A DNA stretch of 64,000 nucleotides from assembly GCA_036407095.1 (NCBI GenBank), contig DASWZV010000163.1, forward strand, positions 57,105 to 121,104, written 5' to 3'. The position numbers and the translations under genes are program-made. Positions 3,199 through 62,490 of the stretch are shown piece after piece. The notes under the pieces were generated by a model. The model was given only the letters and a program-made list of their open reading frames with translations. It was not told the DNA's origin and did no database searches. The stretch comes from Vicinamibacterales bacterium. Its GTDB lineage: Bacteria > Acidobacteriota > Vicinamibacteria > Vicinamibacterales > UBA2999. Position 1 is the first letter of the stretch. Every line of letters begins with the position of its first letter.

Positions 3199-4776
3199 AT
3201 GCCTCGTCAGACCGATCGCCTCGACACCCTCGTCCCGACGCCCGATCGCAGGCTCATACCCGGCTCAGCGCACCAGTGGGACAGGGTCATCGTGCTCGCG
3301 AATCGCGCACCAGTACGGCACGAACACTCAGCGGATGGCGCGATCACGATGACGCGCTCGGCAAGCGGCGTCACGACAGCACTCGAGCCGATCGTCGACG
3401 CGTGTCGAGGAACCTGGATCGCCCATGCCAATGGCGACGCCGACATGACAGCCGCGCAGCAAAGCGACGGCCTGGCGGTGACGCCGCCCGACCAGCGGTA
3501 TCGACTGCGATACGTCAGACTCTCCGACGAGCAGTACGAGGGGTACTACTACGGCTTCGCCAATCAGGGCCTGTGGCCACTCAGCCACGCGGTTCCGGTG
3601 AAGCCGGTATTCCGTCCCGGCGACTACGCGATGTATCGGAAAGCCAATCGTGAGTTCTCGTCTGCCGTTGTCGAAGAGGCCGCCGCAGGATCGGCCCTCG
3701 TGCTCGTGCAGGATTACCACTTCGCGCTCGCGCCCAGGATCCTCCGACGTCGTCTTTTTGGAGGGAGCACCATCGTCTCGTTCTGGCATATCCCGTGGCC
3801 CGACTCACGCGGATTCAGCACGTGCCCGTGGGCAGCGAATCTGCTCGATGGGCTCCTCGCCAGCGACATCCTTGGATTTCAGACACAGGGCGATCGCGAC
3901 AACTTTCTCGACGCCGCCAGCACCATGCTCGACGCCGACGTCCTCTGCGCGAACGACGTCGTCATCTACCGTGATCACCCGACCTGCGTGCGCGTCTACC
4001 CCGTCGGCGTCGAGTGGAACAACCCGATCGTTCGTTCCACGCCCCCGGCGGAATCGTGTCGCGCCGAGATCGCTCGAATGCATCAACTGCCCGGCAACGT
4101 CATGCTGGGTGTCGGGATCGATCGCCTCGACTACACCAAGGGCATCAATGAAAAGTTCCTGGCGATCGAGCGCCTGCTCGCGCGCGACCCCGACATCCGC
4201 GAGCGCTTTGCGTTCATTCAGGTCGCCGAACCGAGCCGGGAACGTCTGCCTGAATACCGCGCCACGCGCGCCCAGATCGAAGAGACCGCACGGCGCATCA
4301 ACGTCCGGTTCGGCGTCAGGGATCACCAGCCGATCCGGCTGCTGGCCACGCATCACGAGCCGGCCGACGTGTACCGCTTGTACCGCGCCGCCGACTTCTG
4401 TCATGTGGGAAGCCTCGATGATGGAATGAACCTCGTCGCCAAAGAGTTCGTGTGTGCGCGGACCGACGAGCGCGGCGTGCTCGTCCTGAGTCAGCACGCG
4501 GGTGCGGCGCGGCAGCTCCGCGCCGCCGTGCTGATCGATCCCTATGCGATCGATGCGGCAGCGGAGGCGCTCGCGAGCGCGCTCGAGATGCCGCCCTCCG
4601 AGCAGGAGCATCGGATGCGGCTCCTGCGGGCGAACGTCGCCAGCTTCGATGCGCACTGGTGGGGCCGGCAGCTGCTCGAAGACGCACGCCGGGTGCGGGG
4701 GTTGGGTGGCGAGTGCGGCGACGCCGAGCACACTCGTCCCGCAGTGTCAGATGACCACTTCAAGGCCGCCAGTTAG
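3199..4776 (+). CDS. otsA: alpha,alpha-trehalose-phosphate synthase (GT20)
   Basis: Uses the internal ATG at 3199 (GGAGGG RBS) of ORF 2656..4776. Motifs VLANRAPV, GFANQGLWPLSH, VQDYHF and FWHIPWP are typical of OtsA. No otsB is adjacent. Confidence 0.85.
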   Translation: MPRQTDRLDTLVPTPDRRLIPGSAHQWDRVIVLANRAPVRHEHSADGAITMTRSASGVTTALEPIVDACRGTWIAHANGDADMTAAQQSDGLAVTPPDQRYRLRYVRLSDEQYEGYYYGFANQGLWPLSHAVPVKPVFRPGDYAMYRKANREFSSAVVEEAAAGSALVLVQDYHFALAPRILRRRLFGGSTIVSFWHIPWPDSRGFSTCPWAANLLDGLLASDILGFQTQGDRDNFLDAASTMLDADVLCANDVVIYRDHPTCVRVYPVGVEWNNPIVRSTPPAESCRAEIARMHQLPGNVMLGVGIDRLDYTKGINEKFLAIERLLARDPDIRERFAFIQVAEPSRERLPEYRATRAQIEETARRINVRFGVRDHQPIRLLATHHEPADVYRLYRAADFCHVGSLDDGMNLVAKEFVCARTDERGVLVLSQHAGAARQLRAAVLIDPYAIDAAAEALASALEMPPSEQEHRMRLLRANVASFDAHWWGRQLLEDARRVRGLGGECGDAEHTRPAVSDDHFKAAS

Positions 4777-4806
4777 TTCAATGATGAAGCGGCAGATCCC
4801 CCAGAC

Positions 4807-5110
4807 GGCCACGACGATCACGAAGGTGAGGAGCCTGCCTCCGCTCCTCCACCTTTGTGATCTTTGTGGCTGACTGCTCCGTGTGACCCGGACGGCCACG
4901 AAGATCAGGAAGGAGACACGGAGGTTTTGGGCCACGAAGATCACGAAGGTGAGCCACGGAGCTTTCTCTGTTTCTCCAGCTTCGTGATCTCCGTGGCTGA
5001 TTTCTCCGTGCCTGCTCAGAAATCTGCCTCAGGCTTGACGGCGAAAACAGAGACTGCGGAGGAAACGGAGAAAAGCATCAACACGGAGACAACGGGGAAA
5101 ACGGAGAAGA
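4807..5110. repeat. cluster of CCACGGAG/CTCCGTGG and GATCACGAAG/CTTTGTGATC motif repeats forming nested hairpins (family 1, locus A)
   Basis: For example, 4808-4828 pairs with 4850-4870 as a 21-bp stem with 2 G-T wobble positions. CTCCGT-type motifs at 4980-5010 face ACGGAG-type motifs at 5050-5106. ORFs across it translate to HEDHEG/TETAEETEK repeats. Confidence 0.8.
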
Positions 5111-5296
5111 TCGTTCTGTCCACAATCCCCCGTTCCTCACGGCAACGAAGGCAGCGTCGAAATGGCTCCCCAGTTTTCACTGTGCGGGTCGGGCCCCGCT
5201 CATGAGCACTCCGCGTTGTTGGTGGCTTGAAACGACGACGGAACGCGTTAAACTCCCCCAAACCGCCACCAAGGCGTGCCTACCCAGGGGGACTTC

Positions 5297-13120: not shown

Positions 13121-13241
13121 GCCACAAAGAGAAACGGAGGACCTCATCTTTCCTCTCATCTCCGTTTCTCGTCCTTTGTGATCTTTGTGTTCTTTGTGGC
13201 CAAGACCTCCGTGATCTCCGTGAGTCCGTGCTCTCCGTGGC
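13121..13241. repeat. family 1 repeat, locus B
   Basis: GCCACAAAGAGAAACGGAG faces CTCCGTTTCTC...CTTTGTGGC. It ends in CTCCGTGATCTCCGTG...CTCTCCGTGGC, abutting the stop of the minus-strand gene. Confidence 0.8.
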
Positions 13242-15284: not shown

Positions 15285-15387
15285 GGCCACGGAGAACACG
15301 GAGAGTCCAACCTCCGTGTCTCAACCTTTGTGATCTTCGTGATCTTCGTGGCCAATTCTCTCCGTTTCTCTCTGTGGCCTTTGTGGC
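15285..15387. repeat. family 1 repeat, locus C
   Basis: Sequence GGCCACGGAGAACACGGAG...CTCCGTGTCTC...CCTTTGTGATCTTCGTGATCTTCGTGGCC...CTCCGTTTCTC...CCTTTGTGGCC. It fills the whole gap between two minus-strand genes. Confidence 0.8.
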
Positions 15388-58482: not shown

Positions 58483-58597
58483 TGCGAGATGCAGAATCAA
58501 TGCAAAATGCAAAAGTCAAAATGCAAAAGGGCTTGGTGATTCTTCGAAGGACGGAGACCTTTTGGCATTTTGCATTTTGAATTTTGCATTTCGATTA
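58482..58597. repeat. AT-rich palindrome built from ATGCAAA / TTTGCAT heptamers
   Basis: The left arm 58482-58530 has ~5 ATGCAAA-type heptamers and the right arm 58558-58597 has ~5 TTTTGCA-type heptamers. A 27-bp core separates them. The palindrome overlaps the last ~27 codons of the QueA-like ORF. Confidence 0.85.
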
Positions 58598-59622: not shown

Positions 59623-60338
59623 CGAGTGATCTCCAACGCACCCGAGTGCGAGCCCACACGGGCGGCGATGAGCTGAACGATCTCCGCCGCCGCCGCGTCC
59701 GGGCTTTTCAACTGGGAACGATCGGCGTCAGGGACAGCCAGGCTATGCAGCGGCGTGTCCATGTCGCCGGGATCGATCGACACGATGCGAATGCCTTCGG
59801 CCGCCAGTTCTTCGTTCCAGATCCGACTGAGATGATGGAGCGCGGCCTTGCTGGCGCCGTACGCACCCCAGCCCGGGTACGGATTGATTGCGGCGTCGCT
59901 CGAGATATTGACCACGAGCGGCGCACGTCCGTCGCGTGCCGATGCCGCCAGCGCGCCGAGCAGCGCTTTGGTCAGGCGAAACGGTCCGAGGACGTTGGTG
60001 CCGAACGCGATCTCGAGGTCTTCGCATTCGGTGTCGGCGAGCGGCGCCAGCGGCACCGGGCCGAGTGAGGACGCATTGTTGACGAGGACATCGAGCCCAC
60101 CCAGGGCCCCGAGTACCTGGATCGCGATCGGGTGAACGTCGTCCTTGCGTGAGACGTCGCCGACGATGCCGCAGGCATCGGGCCGTTCGCGACAGGTGCG
60201 CTCGACCCCCTTCCGACCGCGCGCGACGAACGCGACGTGGGCTTTCCCGTCCAGTAACCGCCGGACGAGCGCGAGCCCCAGACCTGACGTTCCACCGGTC
60301 ACCGCGACCCTGAGTCCTGCGAGAGATGGTTCAGACAT
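59619..60338 (-). CDS. SDR-family oxidoreductase
   Basis: ATG 60338 follows an AGGAG RBS at 60344-60348. VTGGTSGLG. AYGASKAAL (YxxxK). There is a 4-nt overlap with the QueA-like start. Confidence 0.85.
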   Translation of the reverse strand: MSEPSLAGLRVAVTGGTSGLGLALVRRLLDGKAHVAFVARGRKGVERTCRERPDACGIVGDVSRKDDVHPIAIQVLGALGGLDVLVNNASSLGPVPLAPLADTECEDLEIAFGTNVLGPFRLTKALLGALAASARDGRAPLVVNISSDAAINPYPGWGAYGASKAALHHLSRIWNEELAAEGIRIVSIDPGDMDTPLHSLAVPDADRSQLKSPDAAAAEIVQLIAARVGSHSGALEITR

Positions 60339-60364
60339 GACCGCTCCTGTGATTGACACCTCAC

Positions 60365-60395
60365 AGGCTACAAGTTAAAGTTAACTTTAAGTCAA
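60365..60395 (-). promoter_or_regulatory. MerR/SoxR-type promoter: -35 TTGACT, 19-bp spacer with SoxR-box-like palindrome, -10 TAGCCT
   Basis: On the minus strand, the -35 is at 60390-60395 and the -10 at 60365-70. A perfect 16-bp palindrome TTAAAGTTAACTTTAA (60375-60390) carries the AAGTTAACTT core. It lies between the divergent soxR and SDR genes. Confidence 0.65.
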
Positions 60396-60411
60396 GCGCT
60401 CCAGCTCCGCC

Positions 60412-60870
60412 ATGTCGGATCTCATGACCATCACCGAGGTCGCGCGCCGCAGCGGCGTCGCCGCCTCCGCGCTGCGGTTCTACGAATCGCGCGGCCTGAT
60501 CACGTCCGAGCGTGCCGGCTCGGGCCATCGGCGGTATCTGCGCGCAGTGCTGCGGCGGATCGCGTTCATCGTGTTCGCGCAGAAGATCGGCCTGTCGCTC
60601 GACGAGATCGCCGTCGAGCTCTCGAAGCTGCCCCACAACCGCGTGCCCGAGCGAGCCGACTGGGGGAAACTGTCGGCTAGCTGGACCCGGCGGGTCGACG
60701 ATCGGATCGAGGAACTGCAGCGGCTCAAGGCAGGGCTGACGCAATGCATCGGGTGTGGATGCCTGACGCTGCACCAGTGCCAGCTCGCCAATCCGGGAGA
60801 TGCGGTTGGACAGGCCGGACCGGGGCCGCGGTTTTGGATTGGACGGCCACGACGCGCTCAGAGTACGTAA
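60412..60870 (+). CDS. soxR: redox-sensitive transcriptional activator SoxR (MerR family, 2Fe-2S)
   Basis: MerR HTH LMTITEVARRSGVAASALRFYESRGLI. Cluster motif CIGCGCLTLHQC. Confidence 0.9.
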   Translation: MSDLMTITEVARRSGVAASALRFYESRGLITSERAGSGHRRYLRAVLRRIAFIVFAQKIGLSLDEIAVELSKLPHNRVPERADWGKLSASWTRRVDDRIEELQRLKAGLTQCIGCGCLTLHQCQLANPGDAVGQAGPGPRFWIGRPRRAQST

Positions 60871-60920
60871 GCGGCACCCTTCAGCGCGGCCGATAAACCG
60901 GAGAAGTCGAATTCCTTCCT

Positions 60921-61383
60921 GACGCTCGGTCGGTGCGATCCCCCCGCACGATAGTCGGTGCGATCCTCACTGACGATAATCGGTGCGATCCTGCTGAACG
61001 ATAGTCGGTGCGATTCTGTCTGACGATAGTCGGTGCGATCCCTTCTGACGATGGTCGGTGCGATTCTGCTGAACGATAGTCGGTGCGATCCCTGTGGCAA
61101 TCGTCGGCGCGATCGGTCTAACGCGTGTCGGTGCGATCCTGCCGAACGATAAGTCGATGCGATCTCGGTAACGAAGGATCGTGCGGTGCTTGGGCACAAC
61201 CGCACGAACCACCCCCGCACCGACAATCGTCAGAAGGGATCGCACCGACCGTCGTCAGTCGGATCGCACCGACTATAGTCAGACAACATCGCACCGACTA
61301 TCGTCAGGAAAGATCGCACCGACCGTCGTCAGCTGGATCGCACCGACTGGCATCAGCAGGATCGCACCGACGATCGTCAGGCA
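60921..61383. repeat. two convergent arrays of a 25-bp tandem repeat (about 10 forward + 6-7 reverse copies) around a central hairpin
   Basis: Forward cores CGGTGCGATC start at 60931, 60956, 60981, 61006, 61031, 61056, 61081, 61105, 61129 and 61155. Reverse cores GATCGCACCG start at 61238, 61262, 61287, 61312, 61336 and 61360. The centre is GTGCGGT-N11-ACCGCAC at 61181-61205. Confidence 0.9.
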
Positions 61384-61389
61384 GGCCGA

Positions 61390-62019
61390 TCAGAATTTTC
61401 CCGGGAACTGCTTGACGATCCCATCCGACAACGCATCCGACATCGTCAGGATGTGCGCGTAGACCGCGTCGAATGCGCGGACGTCAGCATCCCAGTTCTT
61501 CGTCAGCCGCGCGACGACTTCGTCCGTCGTCGTCGAGAGATGCTTGTTCATCATCTCGACCAGCGTGGCGCGCGGCCAGTTCGGGTTCGCACCGCTCAGG
61601 AACTCGGCGATCGCTTCTCCGTTGCGATGCCACTTCGCATCCGCCTGCTGCTGCGACGCCTTGTCGCCCGCCTTCGCGGCCTTGATCAGATCGACGGCGA
61701 TCGCGATGTGCTCCTTGAGGAGCCCGGTCAACTTGTCTCCGGCGGGCTTCCCGTAGAACGTGGCTACTGCGGCCCCGATGTCTTCCTGATTCTTCATCAA
61801 CCGGTTGGCTGCCGCTTGGGTGTCTGGCTGATCTCCGATCGCCGCCACGATGTACTGCCGCGTCCAGACGACATGATCCGTCCACAACTTGCGCATGTCC
61901 TGGTGCAGCGTCACCGCAGCCGACGACGTCTCCGCCGCGTGATGTGCCGTCTGTGCCGCTGCGGGTGCCGCTGGTATCGAGCCGACGACGATGAGTGATG
62001 CGAACACCAATGCCTTCAT
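61390..62019 (-). CDS. secreted helical hypothetical protein, 209 aa
   Basis: Uses the internal ATG at 62019 (GGAGGA RBS). Signal peptide MKALVFASLIVVGSIPAAPAAA. The 187 aa upstream in ORF 61390..62580 are translated repeats. Confidence 0.65.
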   Translation of the reverse strand: MKALVFASLIVVGSIPAAPAAAQTAHHAAETSSAAVTLHQDMRKLWTDHVVWTRQYIVAAIGDQPDTQAAANRLMKNQEDIGAAVATFYGKPAGDKLTGLLKEHIAIAVDLIKAAKAGDKASQQQADAKWHRNGEAIAEFLSGANPNWPRATLVEMMNKHLSTTTDEVVARLTKNWDADVRAFDAVYAHILTMSDALSDGIVKQFPGKF

Positions 62020-62049
62020 GATGGTCCTCCTTGCCAAGCGGCGATTGTC

Positions 62050-62490
62050 AAGACTTTCACGCAGAGTTCGCCGAGGCGCAGAGATCGCGGAGGCTGATTT
62101 CGGAAGTACGGAGAAGCGTCTCGCACGGAGCCACGGAGAAACGGAGATCGGACGGAGCCGACTGCTAACCCACGTGTGAAACGCGAGTGGGGGCGTCGGC
62201 CTGCGGCCGACGCATGGGGCGAGAGTCGCTCGCGAAAACAAGCGCGGTACGCATTTCTGCCGCGTTTGTTTTCGTGTGCGGCTCTCGTCCCATCGCGCGC
62301 TGCGCGCGCGCCCCACCCGCGCCGGAACCGGTCGCAACCGGCGAGCCTCTGTCCGACCTCCGTGCCTTCGTGTCTCCGTGCGAACCGTGCCTCCGTACCG
62401 CCATGACGAACCCAACAACCTCTGCGAACTCCGCTCCTCTGCGTGCTCTGCGTGAAGGCTCTTCCCTGCGGCCTCCGCTCCCTCTGCACT
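62050..62490. repeat. family 1 repeat, locus D: ~100-bp arm of ACGGAG/GCAGAG motifs facing ~140-bp arm of CTCCGT/CTCTGC motifs
   Basis: Matching pairs are 62106-62113 with 62391-62398, 62121-62130 with 62374-62383, 62058-62066 with 62437-62445, and 62087-62094 with 62471-62478. A ~180-bp GC-rich core contains GTCGGCC-TGC-GGCCGAC. Confidence 0.8.

Follow-up and report, generated by a model that had tools for sequence, protein, structure and literature searches.

INTRODUCTION

The described systems closest to the element reported here are the intervening sequences (IVS) of 23S rRNA genes. In Coxiella, the IVS holds an open reading frame (ORF) for an S23p protein (PF05635) in the loop of a stem of 28-bp terminal repeats that is cut by RNase III, and variable-number heptamer repeats are present at the base of the stem, just upstream of this ORF (PMC4990558); the pentameric ring structure of the PF05635 family (2GSC) is cited in Warrier et al. 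2016 (PMC4990558). Here we analyse a 64,000-nt stretch of DNA from a Vicinamibacterales bacterium (contig DASWZV010000163.1; the whole stretch is called the window below), in which an intergenic element at 60919..61382 is composed of two convergent arrays of a 24–25-nt unit, and we compare this element with its relatives, of which the full-length copies carry a PF05635 gene between the arrays. IVS of the Leptospira, Coxiella and Xanthomonas type resemble the family of the window element in that PF05635 lies in the loop of an inverted-repeat stem, and they are tolerated inside transcription units, where their excision by RNase III has been shown experimentally. They are inserted into the 23S rRNA gene at helix 25 or 45, whereas the window element lies outside rRNA, and their stem is about 28 bp long, whereas the stem of the window family spans 170–1100 bp and consists wholly of 24–25-nt tandem units. 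Moreover, the IVS carries an ORF and the window copy does not, and the PF05635 ORF of Vicinamibacterales bears the signature of purifying selection while that of Coxiella is decaying.

Short tandem arrays of a similar kind are the STRR (short tandemly repeated repetitive) heptamers of cyanobacteria. Rehm et al. 2015 (PMC4692102) reported ∼186 GGGAATC heptamer arrays per Xanthomonas genome, among them 70–75 convergent pairs, as well as GGGGA(C/T)T arrays in Nostoc, and interpreted the heptamer arrays as G-quadruplex motifs; repeat #15 of their supplementary table falls on the XCC0516 start codon, with the protein family unmentioned. Like the window family, the Xanthomonas and Nostoc arrays are intergenic, dispersed and often arranged as convergent pairs, and their length varies among related species while the pair type stays constant. 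Their unit is 7 nt long and G-rich, whereas the Vicinamibacterales unit has 24–25 nt and no G tracts.

A further likeness is found in the REPIN-RAYT system of Bertels and Rainey, in which doublets of repetitive extragenic palindromes (REP) accompany a single, vertically inherited RAYT gene flanked by REPs. Here too a conserved, vertically inherited gene is bracketed by inverted copies of a repeat that is dispersed without the gene as hairpin doublets. The gene of Vicinamibacterales, however, encodes a small four-helix bundle with no transposase or nuclease motif and is not a Y1 transposase, and the repeats are tandem arrays instead of single palindromes, so that the two systems are alike in layout and not in protein-driven mobilisation. 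[quoted passage not shown] Finally, Avd, the accessory protein of diversity-generating retroelements (DGRs), is a PF05635-like four-helix-bundle pentamer that acts on structured nucleic acid (PMC10053308), whereas no reverse transcriptase or template/variable repeat pair is present near the PF05635 loci that we examined. What sets the window locus apart from IVS-type hairpins and from convergent short-tandem arrays is its 24–25-nt unit, its long arms and the abundance of gene-less copies.

RESULTS

The window element belongs to a dispersed repeat family

The window element, which has no ORF, belongs to a Vicinamibacterales-specific repeat family that is scattered through soil bacteria of this order and the members of which consist of two convergent arrays of a 21–26-nt unit (mostly 24 nt) with the invariant core GTCGGTGCGA(T). 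The scan covered a single genome of each species and looked for pairs of neighbouring cores, and every listed locus was mapped with a position weight matrix of the unit; the figures below hold among the matches listed (at least 92 stretches). The unit (core GTCGGTGCGAT) was found in at least 92 genomic stretches, mostly metagenome-assembled genomes (MAGs) of Vicinamibacterales/Acidobacteriota, so that the locus is not unique; the first-pass annotation of the window had allowed that it might be. At least 14 stretches, with at least 12 confirmed arrays of three or more units, came from the MAG SMAG_U9361, whose proteins cluster with those of the window at ≥90% identity.

Arms were paired convergently in 22 cases and divergently in one, and the sole divergent pair is formed by two adjacent elements. 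Compact pairs which, like the window element, have a gap of <80 bp and no ORF made up 12 of the 22, and the arms of the remaining pairs were 214–832 bp apart. Over 99 arms the median was 5 units and the modal period 24 nt, with a range of 21–26 between elements. According to a gene caller based on the GC content at third codon positions (GC3), intergenic positions accounted for 77 of 86 arms, the outer gene was co-oriented with its 3′ end toward the arm in 38 cases vs 16, and no pair was located between two divergent gene starts. Arms usually begin at the stop codon of the co-oriented gene or 0–25 bp from it, and long high-GC3 genes run into the first unit and end at unit positions 2–4 (TGA, TAA, TAG). 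Thus the dispersed satellite lacking any preference of position or orientation, which had been considered initially, is not what is observed, because both position and orientation follow strong rules.

Stop codons at positions 2–4 of the outermost unit were seen in L096 (661–900), L097 (1261–1450), L025, L032, L044, L048 and L073. Because the unit period is not a multiple of 3, successive units present stops in all three frames, and every gene that enters an arm meets a stop within about 75 nt. In L090 (735–1566) a fragment of an IS256-like transposase lies between the arms and in L016 a host alpha/beta-hydrolase-like gene, which indicates that arms can bracket unrelated DNA.

Layout of the window element

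The left arm (60919..61164, + strand) contains 10 direct units with the consensus CTGACGATAGTCGGTGCGATCC followed by a 2–4 nt linker and is in sense orientation with respect to the upstream soxR gene. Its cores start at 60929, 60954, 60979, 61004, 61029, 61054, 61079, 61103, 61127 and 61153, hence the spacing is 25 nt six times and then 24, 24 and 26 (overall period 24–26, mostly 25). The right arm (61212..61382, − strand) contains 7 reverse-complement units with a period of 24–25, the innermost of which is degenerate, and is in sense orientation with respect to the downstream gene, which encodes a 209-aa protein. Tandem Repeats Finder reported 9.5 copies of period 25 at 60929–61164 and 6.8 copies of period 24 at 61216–61380, so that direct reading, this program and a repeat finder agree on the palindromic pair of 25-bp arrays originally noticed. 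Between the arms lies a centre of 47 nt (61165..61211) with a small hairpin; the GTGCGGT-N11-ACCGCAC pairing described before at 61181–61205 is present and extends to 8 bp, CGTGCGGT-N11-ACCGCACG at 61180–61206. The centre holds no ORF, and tblastn found no PF05635 gene in the 64-kb window.

The element is 464 bp long and takes up 89% of the 519-bp gap (60871–61389) between the convergent soxR and 209-aa genes, in keeping with the earlier view that the arrays occupy nearly all of it. The window contains 17 copies of the 12-nt core GTCGGTGCGATC with ≤1 mismatch against 1.7 expected, 16 of them inside the element, a count matched by 0 of 100 shuffles; 16 of the 17 units of the element match it with ≤1 mismatch. 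A promoter scan gave weak promoter-like matches, inside units only. In sequencing run X1, two independent short-read Logan contigs (60700–61058 and 61035–61700+) tile the array with 0 differences, giving it the read support that the first-pass annotation had named as a check. The element is not a CRISPR array, as its units are contiguous with variable linkers of 2–4 nt and no cas genes are nearby, and it is not a 23S rRNA IVS insertion, as its flanks are protein-coding with no rRNA or Rfam match.

Full-length copies carry a PF05635 gene between the arms

At four loci selected by their arrays, an ORF of ∼130 aa lies between the arms and matches, with E 1e-19 to 1e-21, Pfam PF05635 (‘23S rRNA-intervening sequence protein’), as well as NCBIfam TIGR02436, ‘four helix bundle protein’; its sole relative in the PDB is 2GSC, Xanthomonas XCC0516. 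We also approached the pairing from the protein side and selected six homologs (64–87% identity) by protein search alone before fetching their context. All six had a + array upstream and a − array downstream, both of the same Vicinamibacterales unit, and one of these loci reached ∼36+17 units. Thus the PF05635 ORF is present in 10 of the 10 ORF-holding copies with a long centre (4 array-selected and 6 protein-first). Its ratio of non-synonymous to synonymous substitution rates (dN/dS) of 0.07–0.17 points to purifying selection. No defence model of PADLOC matched the ORF, and neither a reverse transcriptase nor a template/variable repeat pair was found near the six protein-first loci.

Nine of 10 copies have, upstream of the ORF, a GGCAC-N5-NTGC motif (GG-N10-GC; the base before TGC is A, C or G) whose position relative to the ATG is −27 or −29 (L004 1970–1996; L176, L177, L178, L180 and L181 about 1974–2000; L002 and L179; and L022 on the minus strand, at −29), while the background is 0.39 per kb; the tenth copy, L065, has a GGCAT variant at the same spacing. 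The motif looks like a sigma54-type −24/−12 promoter and would yield a nearly leaderless mRNA.

In six genomes the ORF element occupies one syntenic site between convergent genes for an outer-membrane protein (OMP) and a major facilitator superfamily (MFS) protein (MFS 70–100% identical), and at this site the direction of the ORF splits 4 (L004, L002, L177, L180) vs 2 (L176, L178). A second inversion of the loop distinguishes the L022 site (4545–5191) from the corresponding contig of run X1. Because the loop was inverted in place at two independent loci, the inverted arms recombine. In L022, which belongs to MAG SMAG_U9361, the ORF has a premature stop, TAG, at codon 8 (4940–4942), whereas the contig of run X1 has TCG (Ser), the family consensus. 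Since this contig has a depth of 16.9x, similar to the 13–15x of the window locus, an intact PF05635 gene is present in the sample of the window itself.

Conservation of the core and folding of the arms

At the protein-first loci, which alone are free of core-seed bias, core positions are 92–100% conserved and the others 42–72%; conservation is 61–65% at the T and C by which GATC is completed, and GATC is kept in 48% of the units. Outside the core, the expected mismatch is 0.406 within an arm, 0.515 between the two arms of one element and 0.552 between different elements (p=0.012). Units are thus most alike within an arm, so that arms homogenise internally by tandem duplication, and a covariation-type pairing test for strong co-evolution of the arms gave a weak signal, with within-arm homogenisation dominating. 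Complementarity of the arms is upheld mainly through the unchanging core. Because the core is conserved beyond the needs of pairing, recognition of the core sequence itself is suggested, and not pairing alone.

The window element, an ORF-less convergent-array (‘foldback’) copy, is predicted to fold into one long imperfect hairpin, with a minimum free energy for the full palindrome of −316.3 kcal/mol as RNA (z −18.5) and −184.9 kcal/mol as single-stranded DNA (z −16.8). In this fold the 7 units of the right arm pair with the 7 outer units of the left arm.

Unit number changes at a fixed locus

We fetched 80 metagenomic orthologs of the 209-aa gene for comparison of the locus. The convergent soxR neighbour is kept only in the two closest of them, and both hold a smaller array. 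In L096, whose flank proteins are 97–100% identical, 4 units are followed by the central hairpin of the window element and then by 1 unit; L097, whose flanks are 91–94% nucleotide-identical to the window, has 2+2 units and no central hairpin, and is 99.9% identical to L069, the locus in SMAG_U9361, from which the hairpin is likewise missing. Hence, compared with 10+7 units in the window, unit number changes fast at a fixed locus, and both arms gain or lose whole units over a short time. Unit-number joints also occur in contigs of runs X1 and X2, but they look no different from those that other loci or chimeric contigs would give.

In L096 and L097 both genes have their stop codon within the CTGACG motif of the outermost unit, and the CGTCAG end of the unit directly supplies the stop codon of the downstream gene. 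Boundaries at the window, L096 and L097 showed no target-site duplications, sharp termini or transposase. In the ∼75 orthologs of greater distance, neither soxR synteny nor an array is present; thus no empty orthologous site could be obtained.

PF05635 genes and inverted tandem arrays in other phyla

To place the pairing beyond Vicinamibacterales, we applied an objective score for inverted tandem-repeat arms to 15 distant PF05635 genes and 55 neighbouring control genes. Inverted tandem arms flank 14 of the 15 (median score 24 vs 8.5 for the controls, p=7e-7), and the exception is a gene of Pseudanabaena (L200, score 5). The arrangement, with other 7–8-nt units, was found for plasmid-borne PF05635 genes in Gemmatirosa, Anabaena, Nostoc, Riemerella, Geminocystis, Aulosira, Calothrix and Stanieria. 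The genera Xanthomonas, Stenotrophomonas and Dokdonella (L193, L194 and L195; gene 1201–1584) have their PF05635 gene between accB and accC with arms of the heptamer of Rehm et al., (GGGAATC)n and (GATTCCC)n, at a site conserved across Xanthomonadales. A full-text literature search, which cannot prove novelty, returned no statement of a link between PF05635 and tandem arrays, and the pairing of this gene with inverted tandem repeats, which recurs across several bacterial phyla, is apparently undescribed as far as we found.

Some of these genes stand in particular surroundings. The accB–accC site lies inside the essential acetyl-CoA carboxylase operon. On plasmids of Nostoc punctiforme and Calothrix (L198 123–578 and 2989–3411; L199 2974–3351), heptamer-armed PF05635 genes directly follow tyrosine integrase or XisH/XisI excision genes. 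In two cyanobacteria a PF05635 gene lies between cas6 and cas4 of a type I-D CRISPR-cas operon (L190 1486–1854, plasmid pANA02 of Anabaena sp. 90; L200 2992–3351, a plasmid of Pseudanabaena galeata), and such insertions may explain why ‘23S rRNA IVP’ is among the CRISPR-linked domains of Altae-Tran et al. (PMC10910872).

Neighbouring genes and other arrays in the window

The left flank is a soxR/MerR-family regulator gene (60412..60870, + strand, stop TAA at 60868–60870; Pfam MerR_1, MerR-DNA-bind and MerR), and a spacer of 48 nt (60871..60918), missing in L096 and L097/L069, separates its stop from the first unit. At the other side, the right arm ends 7 nt from the stop codon (61390–61392) of the 209-aa gene, and a degenerate remnant of an outermost unit (…CCGATCAG; 61383..61392, − strand) enters this stop codon. 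The 209-aa gene (61390..62019, − strand), our marker for orthologous loci, encodes a signal-peptide protein that matched no Pfam or NCBIfam family. The neighbours of the element encode a metallo-beta-lactamase (MBL) hydrolase, a QueA-like protein, a short-chain dehydrogenase/reductase, SoxR, the protein without a family, an extracytoplasmic function sigma factor and a tannase.

Two other kinds of convergent array were seen. One, with an 8–9-nt unit (C)ACGGAG(A/C) or ACGAAG facing CTCCGTG, lies at 62100–62160 and 62350–62400, and also at 4894–5108, 13174–13239 and 15326–15380; it is intergenic, adjoins the 209-aa gene and belongs to the same architecture class as the PF05635 heptamer arrays found elsewhere. 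The other, at 58495–58592, consists of four (A)AATGCAA facing four TTTTGCA at the convergent junction of the MBL-hydrolase and QueA-like genes, with the QueA-like ORF running into it, and its hairpin (RNA −43.6 kcal/mol, z −4.8) explains the chance miRNA-like Rfam matches considered below.

DISCUSSION

On balance we lean towards reading the window element as an IVS-like long hairpin, of which read-through RNA is cut by RNase III and the core is recognised by the PF05635 protein. Read-through of either flanking gene would bring the arms into one transcript, where they would pair to form an imperfect double-stranded RNA of ∼170 bp and would be cut by RNase III, as happens in the 23S rRNA intervening sequences that carry PF05635. 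Through cleavage, the 3′ ends of both transcripts of the convergent pair would be defined or insulated, so that the element would stay phenotypically tolerable, and a stem built of tandem repeats would still pair after slippage by whole units. The core would serve as a sequence-specific recognition site, as its conservation beyond pairing needs suggests, and its likeliest partner would be the pentameric PF05635 protein supplied by a full-length copy at another site of that genome. It is from core conservation together with the pentameric ring structure of the family that we infer recognition of the tandem units by this protein. Of the functional proposals made in the first-pass annotation, the very long transcribed hairpin thus remains our best guess, as a processing site or bidirectional terminator, given its fold energy; the protein-binding array persists in another form, with the PF05635 protein of full-length copies as likely partner instead of iteron- or centromere-binding proteins.

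Several observations count against this hairpin reading. The arms are unequal (10 vs 7 units) and are most complementary when out of register, and none of the RNA runs contains the window locus. A scan of 60300–62200 gave 0 terminator-like sites (intrinsic hairpin plus U tract), and Rfam, searched at a permissive threshold over 58–64 kb, returned chance miRNA-like matches only, none on the array. A solo arm cannot form a hairpin, and hence the 42 solo-looking arms among the matches listed weigh on the same side. The window centre resembles the ORF-bearing loop at unit cores only, with no remnant of the loop, so that descent of the compact copy by deletion is left without support. We know of no demonstration that a PF05635 protein outside DGRs binds nucleic acid. 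Moreover, because the genome scan was seeded with the core, the loci it yielded are biased to core conservation, and the gene calls behind the position statistics come from a crude GC3 heuristic.

A wider proposal, which we offer tentatively and regard as possible rather than probable, is that PF05635/TIGR02436 proteins outside DGRs, which are related to Avd and have long borne the annotation of S23 or IVS proteins with no known function, act as partners of short tandem repeats with sequence specificity. In each lineage, a vertically inherited master gene would be kept in a hairpin of its cognate unit, together with tens to hundreds of gene-less arrays throughout the genome, and the pentamer ring would bind the units and either steer RNA processing or give rise to the arrays and preserve them. 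TRAP, which binds GAG repeats, offers a model for a ring pentamer on tandem units. If true, this proposal would account jointly for the 25-mers of Vicinamibacterales, the GGGAATC arrays of Xanthomonas, the cyanobacterial STRR-type heptamers and the rRNA intervening sequences.

The arrays could instead act as double-stranded DNA, as a multi-site platform to which the PF05635 pentamer or some other protein of the host binds (in nucleoid organisation, or as upstream activator sites for sigma54), with the hairpin incidental. An invariant core with drifting linkers, a period of ∼24 bp or about 2.3 helical turns, the existence of solo arms and the sigma54-like promoter 120–230 bp downstream of the + arm in full-length copies would all suit such a platform. 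We nevertheless think it unlikely, because convergent pairing at 22 to 1 among the matches listed and the extension of the inverted-array rule to 14 of 15 distant PF05635 genes with unrelated units suggest that arm pairing is selected, ORF-less copies hold no promoter to activate, and the arrays are found at gene 3′ ends and not upstream. Rather unlikely, too, is a purely selfish or neutral MITE- or foldback-like repeat that would spread by some route of transposition and persist only where harmless, with no host role and no specific protein partner. The family is indeed multi-copy, dispersed, limited to one order, present or absent between lineages, confined to gene-free DNA and unstable in unit number; yet we saw neither a transposase nor sharp termini or a target-site duplication at the window, L096 and L097, the core is conserved in all copies, and the ORF copy is kept at one syntenic site, beside an MFS neighbour that may be only 70% identical, and shows the mark of purifying selection.

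The remaining explanations carry far less weight. Two sets of repeat units in one intergenic region recall a plasmid-type centromere or iteron array (parC-like), as the first-pass annotation proposed while noting that no partition, replication or recombinase gene is near. The annotation of the neighbours bears out that absence, with no par or rep genes within about 4 kb, and it speaks against a centromere, as do the chromosomal location, with housekeeping neighbours on a 1.1-Mb contig (from a Joint Genome Institute soil metagenome), the many loci per genome at gene 3′ ends, and arrays that are convergent instead of direct sets around a promoter; the centromere is thus highly improbable. We give equally little credence to a Dam/SeqA-type site of methylation or sequestration. 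The GATC enrichment seen at first is real, with 15 sites (and not about 16) in 463 bp against ∼4.8 expected for such a length, but the emphasis put on it is misplaced, since fewer than half of the units in unbiased relatives keep GATC and the strongly conserved part is GTCGGTGCGA. Finally, the array could be an assembly artefact of a long-read contig, as tandem and inverted repeats are prone to assembly error; but the independent short-read contigs match the array at every base and orthologous arrays occur in three other assemblies, so that the array is almost certainly no artefact.

PF05635 is a large family, with 3,271 clusters at 50% identity and, in another search, ∼8,000 clusters at 90% identity, and to our knowledge it has no assigned function outside diversity-generating retroelements; nor do we know of an accepted explanation for the dispersed short tandem repeats of cyanobacteria and Xanthomonas. 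The two are linked by one rule, that is, a gene between inverted lineage-specific arrays, and gene-less arrays of the same unit across the genome. In practice, such arrays break short-read assemblies, inflate hypothetical-protein calls through read-through ORFs and mimic CRISPR-like repeats. If the protein binds the unit, or if the hairpins are RNase III sites, the arrays would amount to a widespread layer of transcript-end control or to a new resident genetic element.

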